Source: Chlamydiales bacterium
GTDB taxonomy: Bacteria; Chlamydiota; Chlamydiia; Chlamydiales; JAAZZY01
DNA length: 64,000 nucleotides
NCBI GenBank assembly: GCA_965206695.1
Contig: CBDBKM010000005.1
Coordinates: 140,414 to 204,413 of the forward strand
Direction: 5' to 3'
Shown: piece after piece, positions 2,800 to 27,027 of the stretch
How positions within the stretch are numbered: position 1 is the first letter of the stretch
Layout of the letters: the number at the start of each line of letters is the position of its first letter
Notes under the pieces: generated by a model
Database searches by the model: none
What the model saw: only the letters and a program-made list of their open reading frames with translations
Told to the model about the DNA's origin: nothing
Translations under genes and position numbers: made by a program

Positions 2800-3738
2800 T
2801 ATAGTATTTTAATTTTTATTTGATAATATGTTATCCTTCTTTTTTTATACAAACAGTAAGGATAAAACAATGCCTAGAGCCTATTCAGTAGATCTTCGAG
2901 AGAAAGTATTACAACATATAGAAAAACATCATGATAAAAAAACAGCCGGCCATATTTTTCAAGTAGGTATCGCAACAATATATCGATGGATCTTGCAAAA
3001 AAAGCAAAAAGGACATTTAAAGCCAATCCGCAGAAAATATGCTTATAAGAAATTAGATGATGAGTTGTTATCTAAATATGTAGAAAAACATCCGGATTAT
3101 TTTTTATCGGAAATTGCTGATTATTTTTCAGTCACTCCGCAAACGATTTTTTATGCCCTTAAAAGATTAAAAATTACACGAAAAAAAAAACTACTCGCTA
3201 TAAGGAAAGAGATGAAAAGAAACGGGAAGCTTTTATGAAAGATTTAAAAAATATTCCCTTTGACAAGAGAATTTATCTCGATGAAACCGGGATTCATCAA
3301 TTTTTATTTCGTGAGTCCGGAAGAAGCTTACGCGGCAAAAAAGTTTTTGGAGCGGTTTCAGGAAACCGCTTTATAAGGCAAAATATTATTTCAGCCCTAT
3401 CTAAAGGGCAGTTTTTGTCTCCAATGTGTTTTGAAGGTACTTGTAATACCGGGTTATTCAATATTTGGCTTAAGGAAGTTTTGACTCCTCAGCTTACACC
3501 CGGTAGTGTTCTTATTCTTGACAATGCCGGTTTTCACAAGTCAGCGGAAAGCAGGAAAACAGTAGAATCTGCCGGTTGTAAGCTTATGTTTCTTCCTCCC
3601 TATTCTCCGGACTTAAATCCTATAGAAAAATATTGGGCTAATATGAAAAATAAAGTTAGAGAGATATTACGAAAAGTTACGAATTTTAAATTCGCCATTG
3701 ATCAAGCAATCTTATCAATATAAAATTAAATGACTATA
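2800..3738 (+). mobile_element. IS630-A, full length, apparently intact (orfA 2870-3238, orfB 3235-3723, A10 frameshift site)
   Basis: TA on both flanks; imperfect IRs TAGTATTTTAATTTT / AAATTAAATGACTA; MPRAYSVDLREKV HTH; DDE motifs YLDET, LDNAGFH, PPYSPDLNPIE. Confidence 0.97.
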
Positions 3739-7812: not shown

Positions 7813-10517
7813 CCGACATTCCTAGACCTCTAAACAAGTTTTTCTAATTAAGCCATACATCCTCATTGCAGTCTTTCCAAACAAAACAATAATCTTTTTC
7901 CGAAGACGGGTTAAATTTGTGATCATTTCTTTACAAATTCTCCGGGAAGTCTTCTGAAAAAAACGGATTATTCCGATACCTTCCATAATTTGGAAAATCC
8001 ATCTTAATGTTGGATTTTTGACTTCCTTTCCTAATTGGTTGGGTAATGTCTCTTCTGTTTCTATCAATTTTTGTCGAAGTTGATATTGTCCGATATTATA
8101 AACCATTAAACACAATGTCATAACCATCATTAATGCTTCAATGCGTCGAGGGGTTTTTAAAAAAATAGAATCAACCATAAACCAAGGATCTTTTAAAAAG
8201 CGAAACCCTCCTTCAACCTTTTGCTGTTCTTTATATTCTTCTAACATCATCTCATCTTTATAATTTTCTCTATCGGTGTCATTCGTAGCTAAAATAAACC
8301 GTCCTTTTCTATTCATCAGTTTATTAATTTCTTCTTCTTCCCTTTCAAAGCTAGCATGAATCTTGTATCCAACAACTTGTTTTTCCTCTCCTTGTTTAGG
8401 TTTGCCTAATTTACCATATTTTAGAATCGGCAATATCTCACTATTCATGGAATATAAATGATTTTTTTTAGTCAATCTGCCCCAAGCTTTTTTAGCATCA
8501 CTTTCGCATTTAAATTCCTCATTACCCAAATGCCAAAGTTGTTTCTTGAGCTTTTCTTCTGCCTTGGTCAATTTTTTTTCTAATGATTTTATCTCTCTCT
8601 GATAGGCTTGCTCTGAAAAAACCAAAAGCCATCTTTGTTTAATCCCTCCATAAAAAGAGGTGAAGCTGCATGTTTTATATCCTTTCTCCTGATCAATCCA
8701 ATCAATTTCTTCTTCCGGTTTTTCTACTAATCTTTTTGCTTCTCCTATTATCTCGGGAACTCGGGTGAGCCATTTATAATCATTATTTTTTAAGAGCTTT
8801 TCTTTTGTGTATAACGCTGAATCGGCAACCCACTTAAACTTTGTTTTTACATCAATCTGTTGTTGAAATTCACTGATTTTTTTGATCGTCTCATGAAAAC
8901 TTGCTTTATCAGAACTATTGCCGTCTAAGGCTTCCATCCATAGAGGCATAGAACTCGGACCATTGGTAACGAGAGAAAGTACAACTTGTTTCAAATCAGG
9001 TCTATGATCTTTAGAATAACCCTGCTTAATCTCAATCACTTGCGGATCATCTTTCACTTCATACGACCCATGAACGGAAAAGCTTGTTGTATCTATAGTA
9101 TTTTAATTTTTATTTGATAATATGTTATCCTTTTTTTTTTATACAAACAGTAAGGACAAAACAATGCCTAGAGCCTATTCAGTAGATCTTCGAGAGAAAG
9201 TATTACAACATATAGAAAAACATCATGATAAAAAAACAGCCGGCCATATTTTTCAAGTAGGTATCGCAACAATATATCGATGGATCTTGCAAAAAAAGCA
9301 AAAAGGACATTTAAAGCCAATCCGCAGAAAATATGCTTATAAAAAATTAGATGATGAGTTGTTATCTAAATATGTAGAAAAACATCCGGATTATTTTTTA
9401 TCGGAAATTGCTCATTATTTTTCAGTCACTCCGCAAACGATTTTTTATGCCCTTAAAAGATTAAAAATTACACGAAAAAAAAAACTACTCGCTATAAGGA
9501 AAGAGATGAAAAGAAACGGGAAGCTTTTATGAAAGATTTAAAAAATATTCCCTTTGACAAGAGAATTTATCTCGATGAAACCGGGATTCATCAATTTTTA
9601 TTTCGTGAGTCCGGAAGAAGCTTACGCGGCAAAAAAGTTTTTGGAGCGGTTTCAGGAAACCGCTTTATAAGGCAAAATATTATTTCAGCCCTATCTAAAG
9701 GGCAGTTTTTATCTCCAATGTGTTTTGAAGGTACTTGTAATACCGGGTTATTCAATATTTGGCTTAAGGAAGTTTTGACTCCTCAGCTTACACCCGGTAG
9801 TGTTCTTATTCTTGACAATGCCGGTTTTCACAAGTCAGCGGAAAGCAGGAAAATAGTAGAATCTGCCGGTTGTAAGCTTATGTTTCTTCCTCCATATTCT
9901 CCGGACTTAAATCCTATAGAAAAATATTGGGCTAATATGAAAAATAAAGTTAAAGAGATATTACGAAAAGTTACGAATTTTAAATTCGCCATTGATCAAG
10001 CAATCTTATCAATGTAAAATTAAATGACTATAGATGATGCGTTTTTTGTAGTAAATCATGGTCTAGGGCTATTCCAAAAGAAACTTCAGCAAATAATTTA
10101 CTGCTCCCATATTTCGCAATATCATCCAAAGCATGACCTAAAGTATAATCTGTGAGATCTTCTGCTCGAAGATTGTTGCCAAGTAAATTCTCTATCGATT
10201 TAGAAGCAAAAAATTGATGTGTTAGGTAGAGACGTCTATTAGTAAACCCTAATCCATTCAGAATCATTGCAATTACTGCCTGTCCCGCACTTACTTTTCT
10301 TTGTGGATGATTTTTTAATCCGGTATCAATCCTTTCCGCTACCTTTAGATCGCTGCAAAGTGCTGCAATTAATCCATGGTGATCCATGTTCACTGTTTGA
10401 ATATTATCTCCTGCAACTTCCGGCATAACTTTTCTCCTTGTATCAAATAAAAAGTAACAGGATAGGCAATCTATAATTCTAATTCAAAAAAAATATCTTA
10501 CGGTCTAGGAATGTCGG
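7813..10517 (-). mobile_element. IS1634-family element copy 1, transposase split by IS630-A (ORF pieces 10028-10426 and 7822-9057)
   Basis: Perfect 16-bp IR CCGACATTCCTAGACC; TSD TACAAT; GYSKDHRPDLKQ, ADSALY, RIEALMMVM motifs. Confidence 0.95.
9094..10032 (+). mobile_element. IS630-A full length, inserted into the IS1634 transposase
   Basis: The empty site GTATCTAGATG is visible in IS1634 copy 2 (about 40214), so the TA duplication is shown directly. Confidence 0.97.
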
Positions 10518-12538: not shown

Positions 12539-13477
12539 TATAGTCGTTTAATTTTACATTGATAAGATTGCTTGATCAATGGCGAATGTAAAATTCGTAA
12601 CTTTTCGTAATATCTCTCTAACTTTATTTTTCATATTAGCCCAATATTTTTCTATAGGATTTAAGTCCGGAGAATATGGAGGAAGAAACATAAGCTTACA
12701 ACCGGCAGATTCTACTGTTTTCCTGCTTTCCGCTGACTTGTGAAAACCGGCATTGTCAAGAATAAGAACACTACCGGGTGTAAGCTGAGGAGTCAAAACT
12801 TCCTTAAGCCAAATATTGAATAACCCGGTATTACAAGTACCTTCAAAACACATTGGAGACAAAAACTGCCCTTTAGATAGGGCTGAAATAATATTTTGCC
12901 TTATAAAGCGGTTTCCTGAAACCGCTCCAAAAACTTTTTTGCCGCGTAAGCTTCTTCCGGACTCACGAAATAAAAATTGATGAATCCCGGTTTCATCGAG
13001 ATAAATCCTCTTGTCAAAGGGAATATTTTTTAAATCTTTCATAAAAGCTTCCCGTTTCTTTTCATCTCTTTCCTTATAGCGAGTAGTTTTTTTTTTCGTG
13101 TAATTTTTAATCTTTTAAGGGCATAAAAAATCGTTTGCGGAGTGACTGAAAAATAATCAGCAATTTCCGATAAAAAATAATCCGGATGTTTTTCTACATA
13201 TTTAGATAACAACTCATCATCTAATTTCTTATAAGCATATTTTCTGCGGATTGGCTTTAAATGTCCTTTTTGCTTTTTTTGCAAGATCCATCGATATATT
13301 GTTGCGATACCTACTTGAAAAATATGGCCGGCTGTTTTTTTATCATGATGTTTTTCTATATGTTGTAATACTTTCTCTCGGAGATCTACTGAATAGGCTC
13401 TAGGCATTGTTTTGTCCTTATTGTTTGTATAAAAAAAGAAGGATAACATATTATCAAATAAAAATTAAAGTACTATA
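12539..13477 (-). mobile_element. IS630-A full length, apparently intact
   Basis: TA flanks, both IRs, orfA and orfB, A10 tract. Confidence 0.97.
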
Positions 13478-18467: not shown

Positions 18468-19526
18468 ATGATGCATTCCACTGATGATCTAAGGATCTCC
18501 TCCCTTAGACCTCTGCTTTCTCCTGCTCTTTTGTTAGAAGAACTACCTATAAGTAAAAAGATTGTAAACTTGGTTGAAAAATCGAGGCAATCTGTTGCAG
18601 ATATTATTTCAGGAGTTGATGATCGATTACTTGTTATTATTGGTCCCTGTTCTATTCATGATCCAAAAGCTGCTATCGAATATGGCGAAAAACTAACGCC
18701 CTATATAGATTCTTTAAAAAAAGATCTATGTATCGTCATGCGCGTTTACTTTGAAAAACCTCGCACGACAGTTGGATGGAAGGGGCCTATTAATGACCCT
18801 GACTTGAACAATAGCTTTGCTATCAATAAAGGATTGAGATGCGCACGTAAACTGCTACTTGAACTTGCAAGTAAAGGCATTCCTTCCGGTACGGAATTTT
18901 TAGATACCATTATCCCACAGTTTATAGCTGATGTCATTTGTTGGGGGGCTATCGGCGCCCGTACTACAGAAAGCCAAATTCATAGAGAACTCGCATCCGG
19001 ATTATCTATGCCGGTAGGTTTTAAAAATGGTACAACAGGCAATGTCCAAATTGCTGTCGATGCTGTTGGAGCTGCTAGTCAGCCTCATTACTTTGTAGGT
19101 ATGACAAAACACGGCATTCCTGCAGTTGTCGGAACAACGGGCAATAAAGATTGCCATATTATCCTACGAGGTTCCTCTACAAAAACTAATTATGATAAAA
19201 AATCGGTTGAAGCAGCAGCTAAAAAATTAGAAAACGCTAAAATAAGCCCTTCTATTATGGTAGACTGTAGTCACGGTAATAGTCGTAAAGACTATAAAAA
19301 ACAGTCTGAAGTCCTCCATGCCCTCAATCAGCAAATTCAGGACGGCTCTCAATATATCACCGGAGTCATGATTGAAAGTCACCTTGTTGAAGGAAAGCAA
19401 GCTTTACAAGCCGGTAAAGAGCTCATATATGGACAAAGTGTTACTGATGGATGTATTGGTTTTGATGAATCCATTTCGCTTTTAAAAGATCTGGTCAAAG
19501 CTGTGCAAAAGAGACGCAATAGATAG
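18468..19526 (+). CDS. aroG: DAHP synthase, class I-alpha (AroF/G/H type)
   Basis: IGPCSIHD, MRVYFEKPRT, GARTTESQ, GFKNGT, VDCSHGNS, GVMIES, YGQSVTDGC motifs. Confidence 0.95.
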   Translation: MMHSTDDLRISSLRPLLSPALLLEELPISKKIVNLVEKSRQSVADIISGVDDRLLVIIGPCSIHDPKAAIEYGEKLTPYIDSLKKDLCIVMRVYFEKPRTTVGWKGPINDPDLNNSFAINKGLRCARKLLLELASKGIPSGTEFLDTIIPQFIADVICWGAIGARTTESQIHRELASGLSMPVGFKNGTTGNVQIAVDAVGAASQPHYFVGMTKHGIPAVVGTTGNKDCHIILRGSSTKTNYDKKSVEAAAKKLENAKISPSIMVDCSHGNSRKDYKKQSEVLHALNQQIQDGSQYITGVMIESHLVEGKQALQAGKELIYGQSVTDGCIGFDESISLLKDLVKAVQKRRNR

Positions 19527-19622
19527 CGCTTGTTTCGACACCTCTACTCCATAGTAGTATATGTCATTATTATGCCTTTTCAACTATGAAGTGCCACAAA
19601 TAGTTAATTTGATAAGAAGACT

Positions 19623-20135
19623 TTAATCTATTTTTTTTACTCCATCTGTACTAATATTTTCTTCTTCTTTATCTTTTGTAAGTTTATAAAAAATTCCTAA
19701 TCCGACAATAAAGAGTACAGCTGCAAATATTAATGCTATTGGATAGCCTATCTTTTCTATATTTTCTTTAGAGACTTTTATAGTTAAAACCAAACCCTCT
19801 AGTGATAAAGCAGTAGCTATAATCATCCCGAATTTTGTTATCGTTTTCCTGGCTTGCTGAGGCGATCTCTCCTCTTTTCCTCTTAGAACCTCTTCGATCA
19901 TCAAATACTTAACCACATCAAAAGAGGCGATAGAAAAAACGATCATACCGACTTGATCTAATAAATAGACGAGAGTAAAGGTGCGATTCCCTACACTAGT
20001 AAGGACTTCTATAATTTCTCCCACAACAATCCAAAACGCGATTAAATATAGGCAAAGACATCCAATGATATATCCTATATTAGATAGAAATAGTATTACC
20101 TTAAAGCTCGGTTGATCCATATCGTCGTACTGCAT
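19623..20135 (-). CDS. Four-TM membrane protein (PsiE/YqhA-like)
   Basis: Four hydrophobic helices; FDVVKYL.IEEV.R.....A.KTITKF pattern. Confidence 0.6.
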   Translation of the reverse strand: MQYDDMDQPSFKVILFLSNIGYIIGCLCLYLIAFWIVVGEIIEVLTSVGNRTFTLVYLLDQVGMIVFSIASFDVVKYLMIEEVLRGKEERSPQQARKTITKFGMIIATALSLEGLVLTIKVSKENIEKIGYPIALIFAAVLFIVGLGIFYKLTKDKEEENISTDGVKKID

Positions 20136-20246
20136 ACAATTCCATTTGGGTCGTAGAAAAGCCCCACATCCTTGAAGTAATCTAACTTATATTAAATTGC
20201 CACATAAAAATGTGGCAATACTAGAGACGGGTAAGGAAAAAGTCTT

Positions 20247-20963
20247 CTAAGAGAAGATTTCAGTGAGAAAATTTTTCATTGCTTTCCATGATCTTGTATC
20301 GGCTTGTTTATTATAAACCGTTCCAAAAGAAAGATTATTAGCCTCCGGGTTCGTAAATGAATGGAAGGTATGGCCATAGATATGGAGTTGCCAGTCAACC
20401 TTTTCCTTAGTCATCTCATCTTCAAAAGTTCTTATAGCCTCAACCGGAACCAGAGGATCATCATGGCCATGAAGAGCTAATACTTTAGCTTTTATTACTT
20501 CGGTTTTCAGGTTTTCCGGTGCCCCTAAAGTGCCGTGAAAACTGACAACTCCTTTAATATCAGCACCACTACGGGCTAACTCTAAGGCACATAACCCACC
20601 AAAGCAATACCCTATTACAGCTATTTTATTAGAATCTATTTGTTCACACTTTTTTAATGTTGCTAAGGCCGAGAGTAATCTGGCACGTAAAAGAGCCCTA
20701 TCGTCTAAAACAGAAGTCATTAAAGCCATTTTCTCATCTTTAGTCTCTCCTATCCTTCCATTGCCGTAGACATCCATAGCGAAACTTACATAACCAAACT
20801 CTGAAAAGATTGCTTTTGCCCTATCACAATAGAATTGGTTTCTTCCATCCCATGCATGGGCTACTAATATTCCGGGCCTTTTTTCTTTAGAATGTTTGTC
20901 AGTCACTAAATGACCTTTTAAAAGAGTATCCCCTTCATAGTAATTAATATCTTCTACATGCAT
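20247..20963 (-). CDS. Dienelactone hydrolase family protein
   Basis: GYCFGG nucleophile motif, SFHG, HGHDDP, YG...HSF. Confidence 0.92.
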   Translation of the reverse strand: MHVEDINYYEGDTLLKGHLVTDKHSKEKRPGILVAHAWDGRNQFYCDRAKAIFSEFGYVSFAMDVYGNGRIGETKDEKMALMTSVLDDRALLRARLLSALATLKKCEQIDSNKIAVIGYCFGGLCALELARSGADIKGVVSFHGTLGAPENLKTEVIKAKVLALHGHDDPLVPVEAIRTFEDEMTKEKVDWQLHIYGHTFHSFTNPEANNLSFGTVYNKQADTRSWKAMKNFLTEIFS

Positions 20964-21109
20964 ATAAGTTGCTCCTTTTTAAAAATAATTAATTACACAA
21001 TATGTTATAAATGTTGACAAATCAAACAGGAAAGCTTATTAATTGCAGAACGCAACTTTTAAAGGCCCTTTCAATATCGAAGTGCGATAAATAGGAAATA
21101 TTTGAAAAA

Positions 21110-21330
21110 GTTAAGATCTTTTTCTCCTTTTTTTTCTTCCACTAAGAGTTTTTCTATTTTTCATCGATGTGTTTAATATGCATATCGTTCTATCGAATGT
21201 TGCTTTTTTTATACCTGTTAAACGACGAAACCTTTCATTATTCAAGGTGCGAATTTTTTCAAATTTCATAATACACACCTACTTTTAACGTAGGCTACTA
21301 TAATCAAAAATTTAATTTCGAAAGCAATCT
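21110..21330 (-). pseudogene. IS5 (ISL2 group) transposase N-terminal remnant
   Basis: MKFEKIRTLNNERFRRLTGIKKATF, then a stop. Confidence 0.65.
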
Positions 21331-21419
21331 ATTGAATTCTTTCATTTGTTTTTACTCCTCTTTAAATTTAGAGAAGACTATATCATAACTGTCCTATTGT
21401 TCAGGGAAAGATCAACCTA

Positions 21420-21700
21420 TCACGACAAACCGGATTAAGTGTGCCGGATGGTCCCTCCATTTTCAGGGCTCAGCTTGTTATCGACTTCATAATCTAAAGT
21501 ATGTTGGTGTATGGCTTCATGGCTAATGAATCATGCTTCTGCTATTTGTTGGATAATTCCAACCTTTATCATACGGCAATACCACTTTAATACGATCACG
21601 AATACGATCATCTTTTTCATATTGGTGTGGTTCTATAAGCCTTTGTCGCTCTGTTTGATCTAAAAAATGTTTTACACTCGGTATTATAGAATAATCTAAA
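21420..21700 (-). pseudogene. Degenerate IS630-B-like transposase remnant
   Basis: EKDDRIRDRIKVVL..DKGW parallels IS630-B EKNGRIRDRIKAVLLSNKGW. Confidence 0.65.
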
Positions 21701-21786
21701 ATCTATTTTCAAATCTTCAAATAACCTCTTTAACTAACATTAATATTACTATCAACAAGTCTTCTTTCATAAAAAAGAAACAGAAT

Positions 21787-23907
21787 CTATTCCGGTGATT
21801 CTGTTTTGATTTCGCTGTCTGCTGTCAAGGCACGATTAGGATCATAATTAAGGCCATAGCTTACAAAAAACTCTGCCTCTTTCTCGATATCCCTATTAGC
21901 CACATAAAAAGTTAGATTTTTACCGAAACGGACTCCACATATATTATTATCTCCTATTTTTTCACAATCTCCGAACTGACCGGTATTTACGTATCTCAGG
22001 TGGTTTCCTGATTGGAATCCATCAACACCACGCAGATCCGAGTTTGTTGCAAATAGATATTCTGAATATCGCCTCACTCCATATTGTCGTCTTCCATCCA
22101 AAAAACCTTCCTCTCCTTCACGAAGAACCCCTGCATAAGGCCCTAAAACTTCGAATTGTTTTATATCTCTCTTTGCAAAGGTAGAGCTTCCTCTGTTTAT
22201 CCCCATATCTAGAGGAATAGCAATTTTATAAATAGCATCCAAACGATTGTAATATTCACTTCTATCCTCTTCACTTAATGTTAACCACTCACGCATGCTG
22301 TCTTTCATTTTATCTTTAATTGCATTTTTTTCCGATGTAGTTAACTTCCTTATTTTTGAGGTAGTCGATTGCTTTTTTGTCAAGGTAGTTGCTTCATCCA
22401 GATATTTATGAAGGCCACACCAACATGTGACCTTAATCGACCCTATTTTTCCTTCACGTTCCAATAGAAGGCTCTGTGTGTTATCCTTCGGGTTTTGCAG
22501 TACAGGTAAGGTTCTATCTATTATATGAGTAAATGGCTCTTTTTTTATAAATAGAACCTCATTACCGGTAATATTACCGGTAATAAGTCGAGGTGTTTGA
22601 GATATCTGTCGGTGTATAGTATCTTCGAGTCTAATCTCCGGGTTTTTCATTTGATGTATTATTGTAGGCGAATGCTTATCCGTACCTACCGGTGTTGCAG
22701 AGATTCTATCTTTAAAATCTTTTTTATCTTGCTGTTTAGAAGAAATCTTCCGGTCTTTAAGTATCTGTAATTGAGATATTTGATCTATAGGTAAAGTCTT
22801 GTTTATTGTATGAGTAAATCGATACTCTTCTTGAATCTGATAATCCGGATCTGCATTTTTACAATCATTTAACAATGGTCCTTCTTTCATAGATACAATC
22901 TCATTATCAACGGCAGAAACAACCTCATTAGTAGATCGAGCTGCATTATCGGTAGATACAAACTCATCGGAAGGATCTTTTTGGCAGCTAATTTTCTTGC
23001 TTTTAGCAAGGTGTGATAATGACATTTTCTTTTTAGTTTTTTCACTATGTGGTTTAACCGGGGTTTTATAAGGCTCTTTCTGGATTTTCATATGCCGGAA
23101 TATAACTGCCAGGCGATTTATTCGCTGTGTTATAGATATTCTATCTTTAGTTTCTTTAGTATGTGTGTAAGCAGACTTTGATTTTTTAACTGGACTTGCA
23201 GAAGAATGCTGCTTGTCTTTAATCTCCTTAAGTCTAATCTTCAGCTCCTTAATTCGACATGTTATATTCCTTTCCTCTTTAGTTTCTTCAGTATGTGTGT
23301 AAGCAAACCTTGATTTTTTAACTGGACTTGCAGAAGAATGCTGCTTGCCTTTAATCTCCTCACGTCTACGCTGCAACCATTTCGCTGCATTCATTGCAAC
23401 CATCACTTGAGTTGCAATTTCCTCACTCTTTTTTCCACTATGTTCTTGACCCGGCCATTTGGAAGGATGATCCTTGAGTCTACTCCGGGCTTTAATCTCC
23501 TTAAGTCTAACCTTCAGCTCCTTAAGTCGACATGTTATATTCCTTTCCTCTTTAATTTGTTCACTAACATGTCTTTTTTCGCCGGAAGACTTTTGAGTAG
23601 GTTTGTCATCTAGACTTGTGAAAGGATTATTCTGGCATCTACGTTGCTTTTTTTGAGGCATTTCCTCTCTATTTTTGTCACTAAACCGTCTTTTAGTGGG
23701 GAAAGGTGAAATTGGAAATTCATTGGGGACAGATGGAGGTTCATTGGGGACAAATAAAAGAAAGTAGGGTATAAGTGGAGGAGGTTCAGGTGGAGGAGGT
23801 GCAGGTGGGGGAGGTTCAGGTGGAGGTTCATTGGGGTCAGGATCAAAAAAAAATGAAAGCAGGTAGGGTGAAAGCACGTTTGGGTTTTCAGGGCTAAAAA
23901 TACTCAT
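21787..23907 (-). CDS. 706-aa SET-domain protein (putative secreted lysine methyltransferase/nucleomodulin)
   Basis: C-terminal GSSTFAKRDI..LGPYAG..YLF..GNHLRYVN..FYVANRDIEKEAEFFVSYG..Y; polyproline N-terminus; NLS-like basic clusters; 44-aa internal repeats. Confidence 0.8.
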   Translation of the reverse strand: MSIFSPENPNVLSPYLLSFFFDPDPNEPPPEPPPPAPPPPEPPPLIPYFLLFVPNEPPSVPNEFPISPFPTKRRFSDKNREEMPQKKQRRCQNNPFTSLDDKPTQKSSGEKRHVSEQIKEERNITCRLKELKVRLKEIKARSRLKDHPSKWPGQEHSGKKSEEIATQVMVAMNAAKWLQRRREEIKGKQHSSASPVKKSRFAYTHTEETKEERNITCRIKELKIRLKEIKDKQHSSASPVKKSKSAYTHTKETKDRISITQRINRLAVIFRHMKIQKEPYKTPVKPHSEKTKKKMSLSHLAKSKKISCQKDPSDEFVSTDNAARSTNEVVSAVDNEIVSMKEGPLLNDCKNADPDYQIQEEYRFTHTINKTLPIDQISQLQILKDRKISSKQQDKKDFKDRISATPVGTDKHSPTIIHQMKNPEIRLEDTIHRQISQTPRLITGNITGNEVLFIKKEPFTHIIDRTLPVLQNPKDNTQSLLLEREGKIGSIKVTCWCGLHKYLDEATTLTKKQSTTSKIRKLTTSEKNAIKDKMKDSMREWLTLSEEDRSEYYNRLDAIYKIAIPLDMGINRGSSTFAKRDIKQFEVLGPYAGVLREGEEGFLDGRRQYGVRRYSEYLFATNSDLRGVDGFQSGNHLRYVNTGQFGDCEKIGDNNICGVRFGKNLTFYVANRDIEKEAEFFVSYGLNYDPNRALTADSEIKTESPE

Positions 23908-24336
23908 AATATACCTATATTATATTTTGATATTAAAATAATTATATGCATTAATTGTTAATTAAATATTAAAAATATCAATTTATTAAACAATAAAGCC
24001 TAAAAGGTTGTCTGTAAAAATAACCGGCCTATTCTACATAAAACTATTTTAATAATTTAGGAACATTTGATTAATAAAATGTTTTTAGAGAGGAGTTAGA
24101 AAAGAAGAATTAGCTGTGTTGAAAAAGTATCATAACTCTTTGATTAGTTAACAAACCGTTACAGATTATCAGTGACTCAAGTAGACTTTTTTAGAACAGC
24201 TAGAGGATTAGGTTCTTAACAAGATTTTTTTTAGTCAAATATTGGGTTTTTTATCTAATTTAAAATAATTATTTGATTCTTTTGACAATAGCCTTGTTGC
24301 ACCCGTCATTCCTCAGTAAAAAATATAATTTTGTTT

Positions 24337-25275
24337 TATAGTCGTTTAATTTTACATTGATAAGATTGCTTGATCAATGGCGAATGTAAAATTCGTAACT
24401 TTTCGTAATATCTCTCTAACTTTATTTTTCATATTAGCCCAATATTTTTCTATAGGATTTAAGTCCGGAGAATATGGAGGAAGAAACATAAGCTTACAAC
24501 CGGCAGATTCTACTATTTTCCTGCTTTCCGCTGACTTGTGAAAACCTGCATTGTCAAGAATAAGAACACTACCGGGTGTAAGCTGAGGAGTCAAAACTTC
24601 CTTAAGCCAAATATTGAATAACCCGGTATTACAAGTACCTTCAAAACACATTGGAGATAAAAACTGCCCTTTAGATAGGGCTGAAATAATATTTTGCCTT
24701 ATAAAGCGGTTTCCTGAAACCGCTCCAAAAACTTTTTTGCCGCGTAAGCTTCTTCCGGACTCACGAAATAAAAATTGATGAATCCCGGTTTCATCGAGAT
24801 AAATTCTCTTGTCAAAGGGAATATTTTTTAAATCTTTCATAAAAGCTTCCCGTTTCTTTTCATCTCTTTCCTTATAGCGAGTAGTTTTTTTTTTCGTGTA
24901 ATTTTTAATCTTTTAAGGGCATAAAAAATCGTTTGCGGAGTGACTGAAAAATAATCAGCAATTTCCGATAAAAAATAATCCGGATGTTTTTCTACATATT
25001 TAGATAACAACTCATCATCTAATTTCTTATAAGCATATTTTCTGCGGATTGGCTTTAAATGTCCTTTTTGCTTTTTTTGCAAGATCCATCGATATATTGT
25101 TGCGATACCTACTTGAAAAATATGGCCGGCTGTTTTTTTATCATGATGTTTTTCTATATGTTGTAATACTTTCTCTCGAAGATCTACTGAATAGGCTCTA
25201 GGCATTGTTTTGTCCTTACTGTTTGTATAAAAAAAAAAGGATAACATATTATCAAATAAAAATTAAAATACTATA
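24337..25275 (-). mobile_element. IS630-A full length, apparently intact
   Basis: TA flanks, IRs, orfA and orfB, A10. Confidence 0.97.
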
Positions 25276-25619
25276 AAGCCTGTTAAGGATAGATTTCACA
25301 CATTAACAGCAGATAATGGTTTAGAGTTTTCTCGGCATCAAGAAGTAAGTTCAACACTCAAAGCAGAGTTTTTTTGCTAAACCCTATCATTCCCGGGAAA
25401 GAGGCTTGAATGAACATACGAATGGGTTAGTTAGACAGTATTTGCCTAAGAAAACAAACTTTAATAATGTGACACAAGAGGATGTAAAAGAGATAGAAAA
25501 ACTGCTTAATGAAAGACCTAGAAAAAGTTTGAATTTTAAAACACCTATAGAGGTTTTCAATCCGAAGAATTTGTGCTATAATAGAGTACAAGTTTGTTGC
25601 ACTTCATAGTTGAAAAGAC
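25276..25619 (+). pseudogene. IS30-family transposase 3' fragment with right IR
   Basis: TLTADNGLEF, PYHSRERGLNEHTNGLVRQYLPK, LNERPRKSL; ends GTTGCACTTCATAGTTGAAAAG. Confidence 0.88.
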
Positions 25620-25835
25620 AATGCCGGTTTTCACAAGTCAGCGGAAAGCAGGAAAACAGTAGAATCTGCCGGTTGTAAGCTTATGTTTCTTCCTCCATAT
25701 TCTCCGGACTTAAATCCTATAGAAAAATATTGGGCTAATATGAAAAATAAAGTTAGAGAGATATTACGAAAAGTTACGAATTTTAAATTCGCCATTGATC
25801 AAGCAATCTTATCAATACAAAATTAAATGACTATA
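25617..25835 (+). mobile_element. IS630-A 3' fragment
   Basis: DNAGFHK through IRR. Confidence 0.92.
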
Positions 25836-26611
25836 ATGTCATAACAAATTTTTGGACCGGTATTAACCTATTTACCGGCGCATCCTTTACTTCCTCAGCG
25901 GTTTTACGCGAGACCTTTTCCGGTTTTGTTAGCTTTGAGACTCTTTTGACCATTCAGACAATGACTCCGCTCCCTTCCGTTCCTATGATTGTATCTAGCT
26001 CCCAATCGCCTAAACGAGTTTTCTTCTCTACGATATCAGGTCTTTCAGAAATATCTATCCGTCCGGGAATACATCCTCGTCCGGCCCTATTTTTACCCCG
26101 CTTGTTATATTTCTTTCCACTATGTCTAAGGTGTTTATAAAACAGGCTCCTCTTTTCTTGTCCTCCCAAACATATTTATAGATTGTCTCATGACTTATAG
26201 CTTCTTGATACCGTTTCTTCTTCAGCCATCCTGATATTTGATCGGGGGCTCCACTGCAGGCTTAACTTCTCTTCGATAACGGCAATCATTGCACTACCCA
26301 TCTTTGGGTTTTGGAGCCTCGTCTCTTTAAAGCCTTCTCTTGAACCTGTTGATACCGATATCCACGATTTCGTTTTAGTTCGCGATAAACAGTAGATCGA
26401 TCCACTTTTAACTCATTGGAAACTAGGGTGATAGGATCTCTTCTTCTTATTCAAGGTGTACAATTGGCATCTCTTGTCTTTCTTTAAGTGACGGTAGCCG
26501 TTTGGCATCTTTCCTCCTTGGTTTTCTTACGTTTACCATAGGAAGTTTTTTTACCATCTTCAGACAAGTTTAATTTGCATCGGTTTGTTGCACTTCGATG
26601 TTGAAAGGGCG
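25836..26611 (-). mobile_element. IS30-family element, 5' two-thirds, degenerate
   Basis: IR CGCCCTTTCAACATCGAAGTGCAAC at 26611; near-identical to the copy at 58068-59150; truncated by IS630-A. Confidence 0.9.
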
Positions 26612-27027
26612 ATTCATCACACGTCTCCTTTAAAAAAAAGCATAATAGCTTTTTAGAAAAATAGTCACTTAGATTTCAATAATCCCATAATATATTGAGG
26701 CATAAGATGAATATCTAAACCTATACCATCTAAACCTTGTTCCTTCCAATCATTATAAATAGGGAGAGGCTCCTCATAAAAAGGATGTTTAAAAGCATCA
26801 GGAACTCGCCCATCAATTAACATAAAAATTGCATCTATTAAGTTAACTACCTATAAAGAAATAAGATAAATTAAAGCTCTGTTGATATCAAAAAGTTTAA
26901 TATTTATACCTTCATCGTGCTTTTTCGGATCGTTTTAGGAGAAAAAATTGGGGACGGTTGGACGCATTCAGAACTTTTGATTGGAAAAAATTAGAAAATA
27001 TAACAAATAATATTATTGGAAATTAGA

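Follow-up and report, generated by a model that had tools for sequence, protein, structure and literature searches.

A putative translocated SET methyltransferase with a degenerate NUMOD3 arm in a Chlamydiales bacterium

Only a few SET enzymes are known that bacteria secrete to rewrite the chromatin of their hosts, namely NUE, RomA/LegAS4, BtSET and BaSET. RomA/LegAS4 of Legionella pneumophila (PDB 5czy, 8sr6) is a Dot/Icm-translocated SET histone H3K14 methyltransferase, in which an N-terminal NLS region and SET domain are combined with a separate targeting domain, and its family carries six ankyrin repeats. Proteins of the chlamydial NUE-like type are short (about 200-300 aa) and have the canonical RFINH motif. 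NUE (CT737) is secreted by the type III system and reaches host chromatin (PMC2904774; PMC3980110), and cpnSET of C. pneumoniae methylates Hc1 (review PMC3980110). Further points of comparison are the PRDM, NSD and MLL methyltransferases and the GIY-YIG/HNH homing endonucleases with their NUMOD3 modules (PF07460).

The protein described here (P0001, below called the target) has 706 aa plus stop and is encoded by an uninterrupted reading frame at 21787..23907 on the minus strand of the window, the 64,000-nucleotide stretch that we analysed from the genome of an amoeba-type Chlamydiales bacterium. Like NUE and cpnSET it is a chlamydial SET-domain protein, but it is only about 30% identical to the NUE-like type, from which it also differs in having a pre-SET region and an arm with repeats. 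The original prediction had seen in it a much larger NUE. This has to be abandoned, since the NUE-like RFINH SET domains of this genome are separate genes (C13:160417-161106 and C11:417825-418523) and the target module belongs to a different, patchy family. The canonical RFINH type is present in 45 of 61 relatives, and the target is not an ortholog of this short chlamydial gene.

With RomA/LegAS4 the target shares an N-terminal NLS-like region and the Arg/Asn/Tyr triad of a bacterial SET enzyme. It lacks ankyrin repeats (no Pfam match), carries SET at the C-terminus instead of the N-terminus, differs in its pre-SET region of about 100 residues, has Thr in place of His in the NH motif and would be expected to use a type III system instead of Dot/Icm. 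The NCBIfam model for AnkI/LegAS4 (NF043024), which has a cut-off of 550, gave only 20.8 bits. The architecture of SET plus tandem small DNA-binding units parallels that of PRDM proteins, and Pfam PRDM2_PR (PF21549) scored 20.8 on the target, below its cut-off of 27, while two paralogs reached 27.4 and 29.6. In contrast to PRDM, NSD and MLL, to which identity is about 20%, the target has neither C2H2 fingers nor Cys-rich pre- or post-SET regions, and the arrays of the family are of NUMOD3 or CxxCY type and N-terminal to SET. NUMOD3 units, as in the homing endonucleases, are intact in paralogs and remnants in the target, but here their fusion partner is a SET methyltransferase, and a nuclease domain is missing from the target. 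We favor, with a probability of roughly 0.55, the reading that the target is a putative translocated, DNA- or chromatin-tethered lysine methyltransferase.

The SET module and its active site

The C-terminal SET domain that had been predicted was recovered by Pfam SET (PF00856) at residues 577-685, with a score of 27.9 bits (cut-off 22.4). Together with the pre-SET region it forms a module with the following features:

22198..22530, minus strand: pre-SET region, residues 460-570, LPVLQNP...SLL...EG.I..IKV..W, with long helices, family-specific
21838..22197, minus strand: SET domain, residues 571-690, found by Pfam, family profile, AlphaFold and Foldseek
22534..22548, minus strand: IKKEP, residues 454-458, a ψKxE(P) motif upstream of the module, where the flank is disordered
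21799..21810, minus strand: IKTE, residues 700-703, a ψKxE motif within the C-terminal tail, which is disordered

The SET motifs of the target are RGS (572-574), GPYAG (589-593), YLF (617-619), GNHLRYVNT (634-642) and EFFVSYGLNY (679-688). An AlphaFold model of residues 440-706, built on a 30-sequence alignment, reached a pLDDT of 85.8 and a pTM of 0.83. Its pre-SET region lies mostly above pLDDT 90, exceeds 95 at residues 460-490 and drops to 82 and 65 across residues ~500-519, at an insertion of about 16 residues that is specific to the target. The best Foldseek matches in the PDB were NSD1/2, MLL1/3, EZH2 and SETD2, with a probability of 1.0 over about 140-150 columns, and the matched folds do not cover the pre-SET region. 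In a search of PDB sequences, the family profile found MLL1 (3e-10), SETD8 (5e-10) and RomA/LegAS4 (1e-9), with GxG, YxG, YLF, GN..N and EELxxDY as the aligned motifs.

The target agrees with the other 104 modules in 20 of the 20 columns that are conserved in at least 80% of them. Its active-site residues R638, N641 and Y684 are the counterparts of Arg178, Asn181 and Tyr220 listed for RomA (PMC10653858), and the triad is thus intact. The RYVNT motif, which had been noted as a replacement of RFINH, is part of GNHLRYVNT, and two of its features differ in their distribution. Thr instead of His (T642) is a property of the whole family, found in at least 90% of members, so that the His of the NHS motif of SET enzymes is missing, as it is in PR-domain enzymes. 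The Arg and Tyr of RYVNT are unique to the target, the family consensus being SL(V/I)NT; the Arg restores the canonical arginine of RFIN, which the other members lack. The His-to-Thr exchange, with its possible effect on activity, is a point against our main reading.

As judged from profiles, conserved columns and the structure model, the target is a genuine SET-fold protein that has kept its catalytic residues. Catalytic competence of the domain as a protein-lysine methyltransferase is part of the predicted best explanation and on these grounds most likely. The module is often flanked by ψKx[ED]: among 79 cases, 45 have it in the 40 residues before the module and 51 in the 35 residues after it, compared with 9% of control windows; both ψKxE motifs of the target sit in flanks of low pLDDT. 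The ψKxE motifs of the family resemble the SUMO consensus.

Leader, basic arm and repeat units

The part of the protein that precedes the module consists of a leader, a basic string and a series of repeats:

23698..23907, minus strand: acidic leader with 38% proline, residues 1-70, contains PDPNEPPPEPPPPAPPPPEPPP; identified by composition and TRF
23638..23694, minus strand: bipartite-NLS-like basic string KRRFSDKNREEMPQKKQRR, residues 72-90, a consensus match only, conserved in the paralog fragment P0039
23491..23622, minus strand: repeat unit A1, residues 96-139, repeat search family D1, with helix 110-146 of the single-sequence model
23215..23346, minus strand: repeat unit A2, residues 188-231, SPVKK linker, YTHTEETKE (NUMOD3 remnant), then a helix
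23083..23214, minus strand: repeat unit A3, residues 232-275, SPVKK linker and YTHTKETKDRISITQ, the best NUMOD3-like unit of the target
22951..23082, minus strand: decayed fourth unit A4, residues 276-319, TPVK in register, HSEKTKKKMS
22597..22872, minus strand: weak partial duplicate of the module start, residues 346-437, FTHTINKTLPIDQ... versus FTHIIDRTLPVLQ...

The N-terminal polyproline tract of the original prediction occupies residues 23-44 (nt 23776-23841), where TRF reports a 15-bp period in 3.5 copies. The MSIFS start is common to the paralogs (MSIF/MSTF), and the N-terminus from Met1 onward is also kept in the truncated paralog P0039. PTKRRF and PQKKQRR, the basic clusters that had been proposed, are both present and jointly make up the bipartite-NLS-like string, and PSKKRKV occurs in paralogs. 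With Lys and Arg making up 22% of the region, chance alone should produce NLS-like and SPxK strings fairly often.

The 132-bp/44-aa duplication was confirmed by direct alignment and repeat search: A2 and A3 are identical at 100 of 132 nt, and at 63 of the first 66. A partial third copy, likewise predicted, exists, but it lies upstream, as unit A1, and it is its second half that is 94% identical to that of A2. This identity, which at the DNA level covers the A1 helix segment EERNITCRLKELKVRLKEIK and the corresponding part of A2, marks A2 as a mosaic. Since A4 carries TPVK in register, (S/T)PxK recurs at residues 194, 238 and 282, with a spacing of exactly 44 residues. The 132-bp repeat, which repeat search and direct alignment do detect, was missed by TRF, and self-BLAST of the target gave no off-diagonal matches, whereas a broader NUMOD3 regular expression and an HMM detected the units. 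The duplicate at residues 346-437 was found in the repeat search (D5, 76% over 41 nt) and as a weak second domain match (E 0.22).

Pfam NUMOD3 reached 10.7 bits (E 0.53) in the N-terminal half of the target, below its cut-off of 20.4, and an HMM of paralog-derived NUMOD3 units matched two stretches, residues 247-261 (12 bits) and 287-296 (7.7 bits); recognizable remnants are YTHTKETKDRIS and HSEKTKKKMS. In the paralogs, arrays of 4-5 units each exceed the cut-off with 37.7 and 42.3 bits, a NUMOD3-rich paralog arm lies at C3:146220-147668, and all 15 NUMOD3 matches of the whole genome fall inside the SET-module family. Given that paralogs exceed the NUMOD3 cut-off and the target falls short of it, and that SPKK-type basic linkers adjoin the units, the repeats are better accounted for by the decay of NUMOD3 DNA-binding units than by SPxK as a CDK site. 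Falling below the Pfam cut-off also means that DNA binding may have been lost in the target. When the full-length target was modelled by AlphaFold from its sequence alone, confidence was low (pLDDT 41.8), and no more than three or four long helices are supported, at residues 110-146, 158-190, 210-234 and 257-271. Promoter and terminator scans gave results no better than those for shuffled sequence, and no Rfam families were found within 19000-27000 of the window.

Module family, paralogs and mobile elements

The target belongs to a family defined by a pre-SET plus SET module of about 240 residues, and its placement in the clade is supported in the tree. A word-indexed search with the full protein returned the query alone, as it was swamped by 8000 low-complexity candidates, and residues 450-706 as query returned two relatives; it was an exhaustive phmmer search of 1.84 billion entries that revealed the family, with 78 cluster representatives at E <= 1e-10. 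A back-translated peptide scan of the genome contigs gave no match. The family motifs are LPILQDP...SLL..EG.I, W..L, GP.RG.S.FAK, GPYAG, YLF, GN..S/R.(V/I)NT, NN and EELL.DYG..Y. P0106 (C2H2 fingers) and P0115 (CXC domain), from the weak phmmer tail, proved to be generic eukaryote-type SET proteins outside the family.

Among 400 Chlamydiota genomes, the module occurs in four, which belong to four families, and it was found in none of 60 close relatives. It is also present in proteins of Pseudomonas, Pantoea, Winslowiella, Paraburkholderia and Herbaspirillum. The Proteobacteria concerned are eukaryote-associated, and their proteins are 1000-2800 aa long, carry the module C-terminally and match no further Pfam domain. 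Toxin-delivery domains, looked for with a polymorphic-toxin reading in mind, were absent from the nine long ones that we checked. In P0075 and P0076 the module is directly followed by an XVIPCD type IV secretion signal (59.7 and 46.9 bits, cut-off 24.9), which the Pfam search did not find in the target. Type III machinery is encoded in the target's own genome (SctV/FHIPEP, 750 bits), and we know of no testable consensus for type III secretion signals.

In relatives, the module is joined to DNA-binding partners. P0017 has five NUMOD3 units, P0020 has an OmpR-type winged helix (57.6 bits), and CxxCY units, a putative new zinc-type repeat of about 60 residues, form arrays of 2-8 copies. Some relatives are fused to Trans_reg_C or HTH_31, and because these domains are of bacterial type, they would suit a role on bacterial DNA equally well. 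The neighbors of P0015 (Paraburkholderia) and P0016 (metagenomic) are housekeeping genes and uninformative on function. The literature that we searched contained no prior account of NUMOD3 with SET, XVIPCD with SET or chlamydial SET expansions; the module family is thus undescribed there, and it is associated with mobile elements.

The target's own genome holds nine SET-bearing copies and two N-terminal fragments (C13:142132-142728, followed by an IS, and C13:40048-40581). The copies form a single clade with 100/99 support, and an IS lies within 4 kb of every one of them. Next to the target gene, the window contains, as context only:

24352..25247, minus strand: IS630-type element with ORFs of 136 and 162 aa, 445 bp upstream of the target gene
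21111..21278, minus strand: 55-aa ORF downstream of the target gene, like the remnant of a transposase N-terminus as judged by eye

The nine-copy, IS-linked expansion shows a putative effector family that diversifies through repeat shuffling.

Proposed role and alternative readings

The target is built from an acidic, Pro-rich leader, a basic arm and the pre-SET plus SET module between its ψKxE flanks. The arm, with a pI of ~9.9 and largely helical or disordered, is made of four decayed 44-residue NUMOD3 units with SPVKK-type linkers and follows the bipartite-NLS-like string. In our proposed mechanism, the chlamydial type III system would export the protein into an amoebal or other protist host, where it could enter the nucleus and be tethered to DNA or chromatin by its basic arm, while the SET domain would methylate lysines of histones or other chromatin proteins. 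Export, nuclear entry, substrate and the roles of the SUMO and CDK motifs are what we infer for the target. The family as a whole, going by its sequence features, probably consists of proteins that enter the host cell by injection and modify chromatin there. The original prediction is supported in part: the target has the SET fold and intact catalytic residues, and several independent in-silico indications speak for translocation and for a eukaryotic host as its place of action, but the framing as an enlarged NUE is lost.

A separate SET family with intact catalytic residues, spread across environmental chlamydiae and plant- and soil-associated Proteobacteria, would, if injected and DNA-guided, be a case from nature in which bacteria direct histone methylation to particular loci, and it would offer a tractable way into the control of host transcription by amoeba symbionts. 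An extension that we put forward tentatively, and consider rather doubtful, is that of bacterial "array-guided chromatin writers". Here, interchangeable arrays (NUMOD3, CxxCY, winged helix) would steer the SET module to sites in host DNA, ψKxE(P) flanks would be SUMOylated by the host and in this way regulate activity or sub-nuclear location, and IS duplication and repeat recombination would diversify the targets; PRDM9 or TAL effectors could be regarded as analogues.

The alternative that survives best, although we deem it unlikely, is a translocated SET methyltransferase with non-chromatin host substrates, for instance cytosolic or vacuole-associated ones, whose leader and arm would serve in protein docking and not in DNA or nuclear targeting. 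The effector-type evidence (patchy distribution, XVIPCD in relatives, clade and IS) fits it as well as it fits our best explanation, and the degeneration of NUMOD3 in the target is in its favor. Proline-rich tracts such as that of the leader are common binders of SH3, WW or profilin domains, and SET enzymes that act on non-histone substrates are well known. It is at odds with the repeated pairing of the module with NUMOD3, winged helix and HTH in the family, with the NLS-like strings of target and paralogs, and with histone methyltransferases being the nearest folds and profiles.

It appears less probable still that the protein is not exported and methylates the bacterium's own nucleoid proteins (Hc1-like or HBb-type histone), with its basic arm holding it on bacterial DNA. 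The action of cpnSET on Hc1 (PMC3980110) provides a precedent, and Trans_reg_C and HTH_31 in relatives would agree with it. However, presence in 4 of 400 chlamydial genomes is a poor fit to a housekeeping role, for which widely conserved canonical SET genes are already there; the growth of the family, linked to IS elements, to nine copies that bear SET and vary in their N-termini, XVIPCD secretion signals in relatives and enriched ψKxE flanks, a motif without known meaning in bacteria, likewise speak against it.

Finally, a decaying, functionless paralog that arose as a by-product of IS-driven duplication and is on its way to a pseudogene could be suspected from the target's branch, the longest of the own-genome clade (0.52), its degenerate NUMOD3 units, the two truncated relatives of the N-terminal half and the IS elements throughout the genome, but is very unlikely given a frame open over 2121 bp, the retention of all strongly conserved module positions, among them the Arg, Asn and Tyr of the active site, the confident structure model, and repeat units with blocks of 94-95% DNA identity, which indicate recent recombination and not long neglect.

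Protein architecture and a repeat arm related to NUMOD3

We found the SET protein to be encoded in one open frame, and every sequence element listed in the original prediction (proline tract, basic clusters, GNHLRYVNT, 132-bp/44-residue repeat) could be read in it. Its features are:

21787-23907, minus strand: SET gene, 706 codons
Residues 23-44: proline tract PDPNEPPPEPPPPAPPPPEPPP, 15-bp period in TRF
Residues 72-90: PTKRRF and PQKKQRR, jointly KRRFSDKNREEMPQKKQRR, fitting the classical bipartite-NLS pattern by consensus match
Residues 96-139, 188-231, 232-275 and 276-319: 44-residue repeat units A1 to A4
22597-22872: weak partial duplicate of the module start (..H.IN..LPI.Q..; first ~40 residues), upstream of the full module (repeat family D5)
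22558-22587: perfect 12-bp tandem repeat ATTACCGGTAAT x2 within the coding sequence, encoding ITGNITGN
22534-22548, residues 454-458: IKKEP, ψKxE upstream of the module
Residues 634-642: GNHLRYVNT
21799-21810, residues 700-703: IKTE, ψKxE downstream of the module

The module is the C-terminal part of ~240 residues, pre-SET plus SET. A relative that belongs to a different chlamydial family (L023, genome G171) has the module start cleanly duplicated over ~165 residues. In the target, a terminator scan additionally scores the 12-bp tandem repeat as a 13-bp-stem hairpin.

Residues 1-60 are acidic and contain 38% proline, and residues 61-440 are strongly basic (pI 9.9, 22% K+R), with (S/T)PxK at positions 194, 238 and 282, spaced by exactly 44 residues. 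Units A2 and A3 have 100 of 132 nt in common, their first halves (KQHSSASPVKKS...) 63 of 66. In its second half (EERNITCRIKELKIRLKEIK), A2 instead matches upstream residues 119-139 at 94% DNA identity (repeat family D1); since its two halves pair with different partners, A2 is a mosaic drawn from two other units. A3 is followed by a decayed fourth unit. A single-sequence model of the whole protein predicted helices at 110-146, 158-190, 210-234 and 257-271, and was otherwise uninformative (pLDDT 41.8).

The paralogs of the same genome carry, N-terminal to the module, three to six copies of ...(H/R)(T/I)V(S/T)D(A/E)TK.K(I/M)S..., and Pfam NUMOD3, a small DNA-binding module of homing endonucleases, scores 37.7 and 42.3 bits in paralogs against a cut-off of 20.4. 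All 15 NUMOD3 matches of the genome lie within the SET family. In the repeat region of the target the Pfam model reaches 10.7 bits, below that cut-off. Because the target's units keep the NUMOD3 core (YTHTEETKE, YTHTKETKDRISITQ, HSEKTKKKMS), are picked up by an HMM trained on those of the paralogs (12.0, 7.7 and 0.8 bits) and have intact NUMOD3 counterparts in the paralogs, the 44-residue repeat is, judged by sequence, a decayed NUMOD3 unit. A basic linker of SPVKK type precedes the NUMOD3-like unit, and an amphipathic helix follows it in two units.

In other members, other nucleic-acid-binding parts occur alongside the module: five NUMOD3 units in P0017, an OmpR-type winged helix in P0020 (57.6 bits) and, in two members, HTH_31 (E <= 1e-4, 2.8e-8 at best). 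The only one checked individually, P0114, stays below the HTH_31 cut-off of 27 with 23.9 bits. Ten chlamydia-like members (P0005, P0007, P0009, P0010, P0012-P0014, P0016, P0018, P0029; loci L021, L024, L025) have two to eight tandem copies of a ~60-residue unit, C.L...H...DPLKR.K...(M/I).LC.SCY..A, N-terminal to the module. No Pfam model matches this CxxCY-type array, which may represent a new zinc-binding, possibly DNA-reading, repeat.

The SET domain and its family

Pfam SET scores 27.9 bits on the target (cut-off 22.4), and an AlphaFold model of residues 440-706, built from a 30-sequence family alignment, has a mean pLDDT of 85.8 and a pTM of 0.83. Its best PDB fold matches, all with probability 1.0, are the SET domains of NSD2, NSD1, MLL1/3, EZH2 and SETD2 (~140-150 aligned columns, ~22% identity). 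Among PDB sequences, the family profile matches MLL1 (3e-10), SETD8 (5e-10) and RomA/LegAS4, an effector of Legionella (1e-9), and these alignments place the family motifs RG.S, GPYAG, YLF, GN...N and EELL.DY on the matching SET motifs. The target carries the consensus residue in 20/20 columns whose conservation across 104 other module copies is 80% or more, and its R638, N641 and Y684 are the counterparts of the RomA active site, Arg178/Asn181/Tyr220 (PMC10653858). The sole canonical residue absent is the His of 'NHS', replaced by Thr; this change, common to at least 90% of the family, resembles that of PR-type SET domains, and two paralogs, but not the target, score high enough to reach the cut-off of Pfam PRDM2_PR. 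In 'RYVN' the Arg is particular to the target, the family consensus being SL(V/I)NT. The SET domain is real by these measures and looks active.

phmmer, run exhaustively over 1.84 billion cluster representatives, yielded 119 matches at E <= 1e-3 and 78 at <= 1e-10, nearly all aligned to residues ~460-695, a ~100-residue pre-SET (LPILQDP.DP..SLL..EGPI..I.V..W, then long helices) followed by the SET domain. The weakest matches, C2H2-finger and CXC-domain proteins, were rejected as generic eukaryote-type SET proteins. The module, sometimes doubled, is usually C-terminal in proteins of 140-2865 aa. The named members are from a Parachlamydiaceae MAG, an Enterobacteriaceae bacterium, several Pseudomonas, Winslowiella toletana, Pantoea, Paraburkholderia sediminicola and a Herbaspirillum MAG, and their annotation reads 'SET domain-containing protein-lysine N-methyltransferase' or 'hypothetical', nothing more. 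The long N-terminal parts hold no significant Pfam domains, and the sole NCBIfam similarity, AnkI/LegAS4, lies far below threshold. In a maximum-likelihood tree the modules of the genome group together with support of 100/99, the target being on the longest branch among them (0.52). Their clade is nested in one of chlamydia-like members (99/95), outside which the named proteobacterial members fall.

The genome, an environmental chlamydia (2.46 Mb, 13 contigs, ~35% GC), holds 11 SET matches: two short proteins with the canonical RFINH (129 and 208 aa; 71 and 66 bits) and nine proteins sharing the module, target included. The RFINH type is a widespread chlamydial SET gene, since the 208-aa query has matches in 45 of 61 related genomes. 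The module was found in 0/60 genomes of close relatives and in only 4 of 400 sampled Chlamydiota genomes (one not scorable), from four different families. The original view of the target as a much larger version of the C. trachomatis protein NUE is therefore not borne out, as the canonical RFINH genes exist separately. Identity to the target is 55-58% for six of the genome's copies and 36-38% for two RING-type paralogs:

C11:131806-132540 and C12:11367-12140: 240 aa each, RING-variant-like Cys/His region joined to pre-SET and SET

Pfam RINGv scores 18.3 bits on these, below its cut-off. They lack ~45 SET-core residues (YLF...GN) and are therefore probably catalytically dead.

Amplification beside insertion sequences

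Across phyla the family has a patchy distribution, and in this genome it is amplified; all 11 family loci here (nine SET-bearing, two N-terminal fragments) have an IS within 4 kb. The elements and fragments concerned are:

21111-21278, minus strand: 55-aa ORF (…ERFRRLTGIKKATFD…RKKRRKRS) downstream of the target, resembling a transposase N-terminus and probably a remnant
2828-3723, 9122-10017, 12554-13449 and 24352-25247: IS630-type element copies (136-aa and 162-aa ORFs)
35945, 56205, 60514 and 61799: lone 162-aa IS630-type ORFs
C13:142132-142728 (P0039, 195 aa) and C13:40048-40581: truncated relatives of the N-terminal half of the target

The 55-aa ORF and the IS630 element at 24352-25247, which lies 445 bp from the target, bracket the SET gene. 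Genome-wide, the IS630-type ORF starts MKDL and MLSF occur 113 and 73 times. P0039 has the leader (MSIFS..NPNVLSPYLLSFFFDP) and bipartite basic string in common with the target, and another IS type follows it. The paralogs C8:91905-93128 and C11:185342-186796 are nearly identical, and each lies between inverted copies of IS630, whose distances are the same in both cases (-471/-833 and +1186/+1549 bp); this arrangement is suggestive of a composite-transposon-like unit or of a recent segmental duplication.

Export, host targeting and competing explanations

Among the relatives, two, P0075 (375 aa) and P0076 (507 aa), carry an XVIPCD directly after the module (59.7 and 46.9 bits; cut-off 24.9); the longest contig of each measures 3244 bp and is possibly the same one. 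In Xanthomonas-type T4SS substrates, XVIPCD acts as the secretion signal and binds VirD4. A gene for SctV, the type III export gate, is present in the genome of the target. The SET paralogs start alike (MSIF.../MSTF...), and two of them contain PSKKRKV, which is close to the SV40 NLS. From chlamydiae to Pseudomonas, ψKx(E/D), often IK.EP, flanks the module, upstream in 45 and downstream in 51 of 79 cases, a six- to seven-fold enrichment on either flank over control windows of the same proteins (9%). In the target, IKKEP and IKTE both lie in low-confidence, probably disordered flanks of the AlphaFold model. ψKxE is the eukaryotic SUMOylation consensus, and we infer that the family may make use of SUMO through these flanks. 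Together with the patchy distribution and the amplification of the family, these features are signs of export and of action in a eukaryote, secretion of the target itself being putative.

We consider it somewhat better than even (about 0.55) that the target is a lysine methyltransferase which the type III system would translocate into the host, and which its basic, NUMOD3-derived arm would tether to the DNA or chromatin of the host. SET effectors as such are already known from bacteria; in the searchable literature we found no description of the module family or of a NUMOD3-SET or XVIPCD-SET fusion. If the repeat arrays guided the enzyme to specific DNA sequences, this would be considerably more interesting.

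The same translocated enzyme acting on non-chromatin host proteins is a less probable, secondary reading. It is rather unlikely that the target stays inside the bacterium and methylates bacterial nucleoid proteins, for which C. pneumoniae cpnSET, reported to methylate Hc1, sets a precedent (PMC3980110); a housekeeping role fits poorly with the family's distribution and IS-linked amplification, with the fusions to secretion signals and with the ψKxE flanks. Least probable is a decaying paralog, against which stand the intact frame and the full conservation of catalytic positions.
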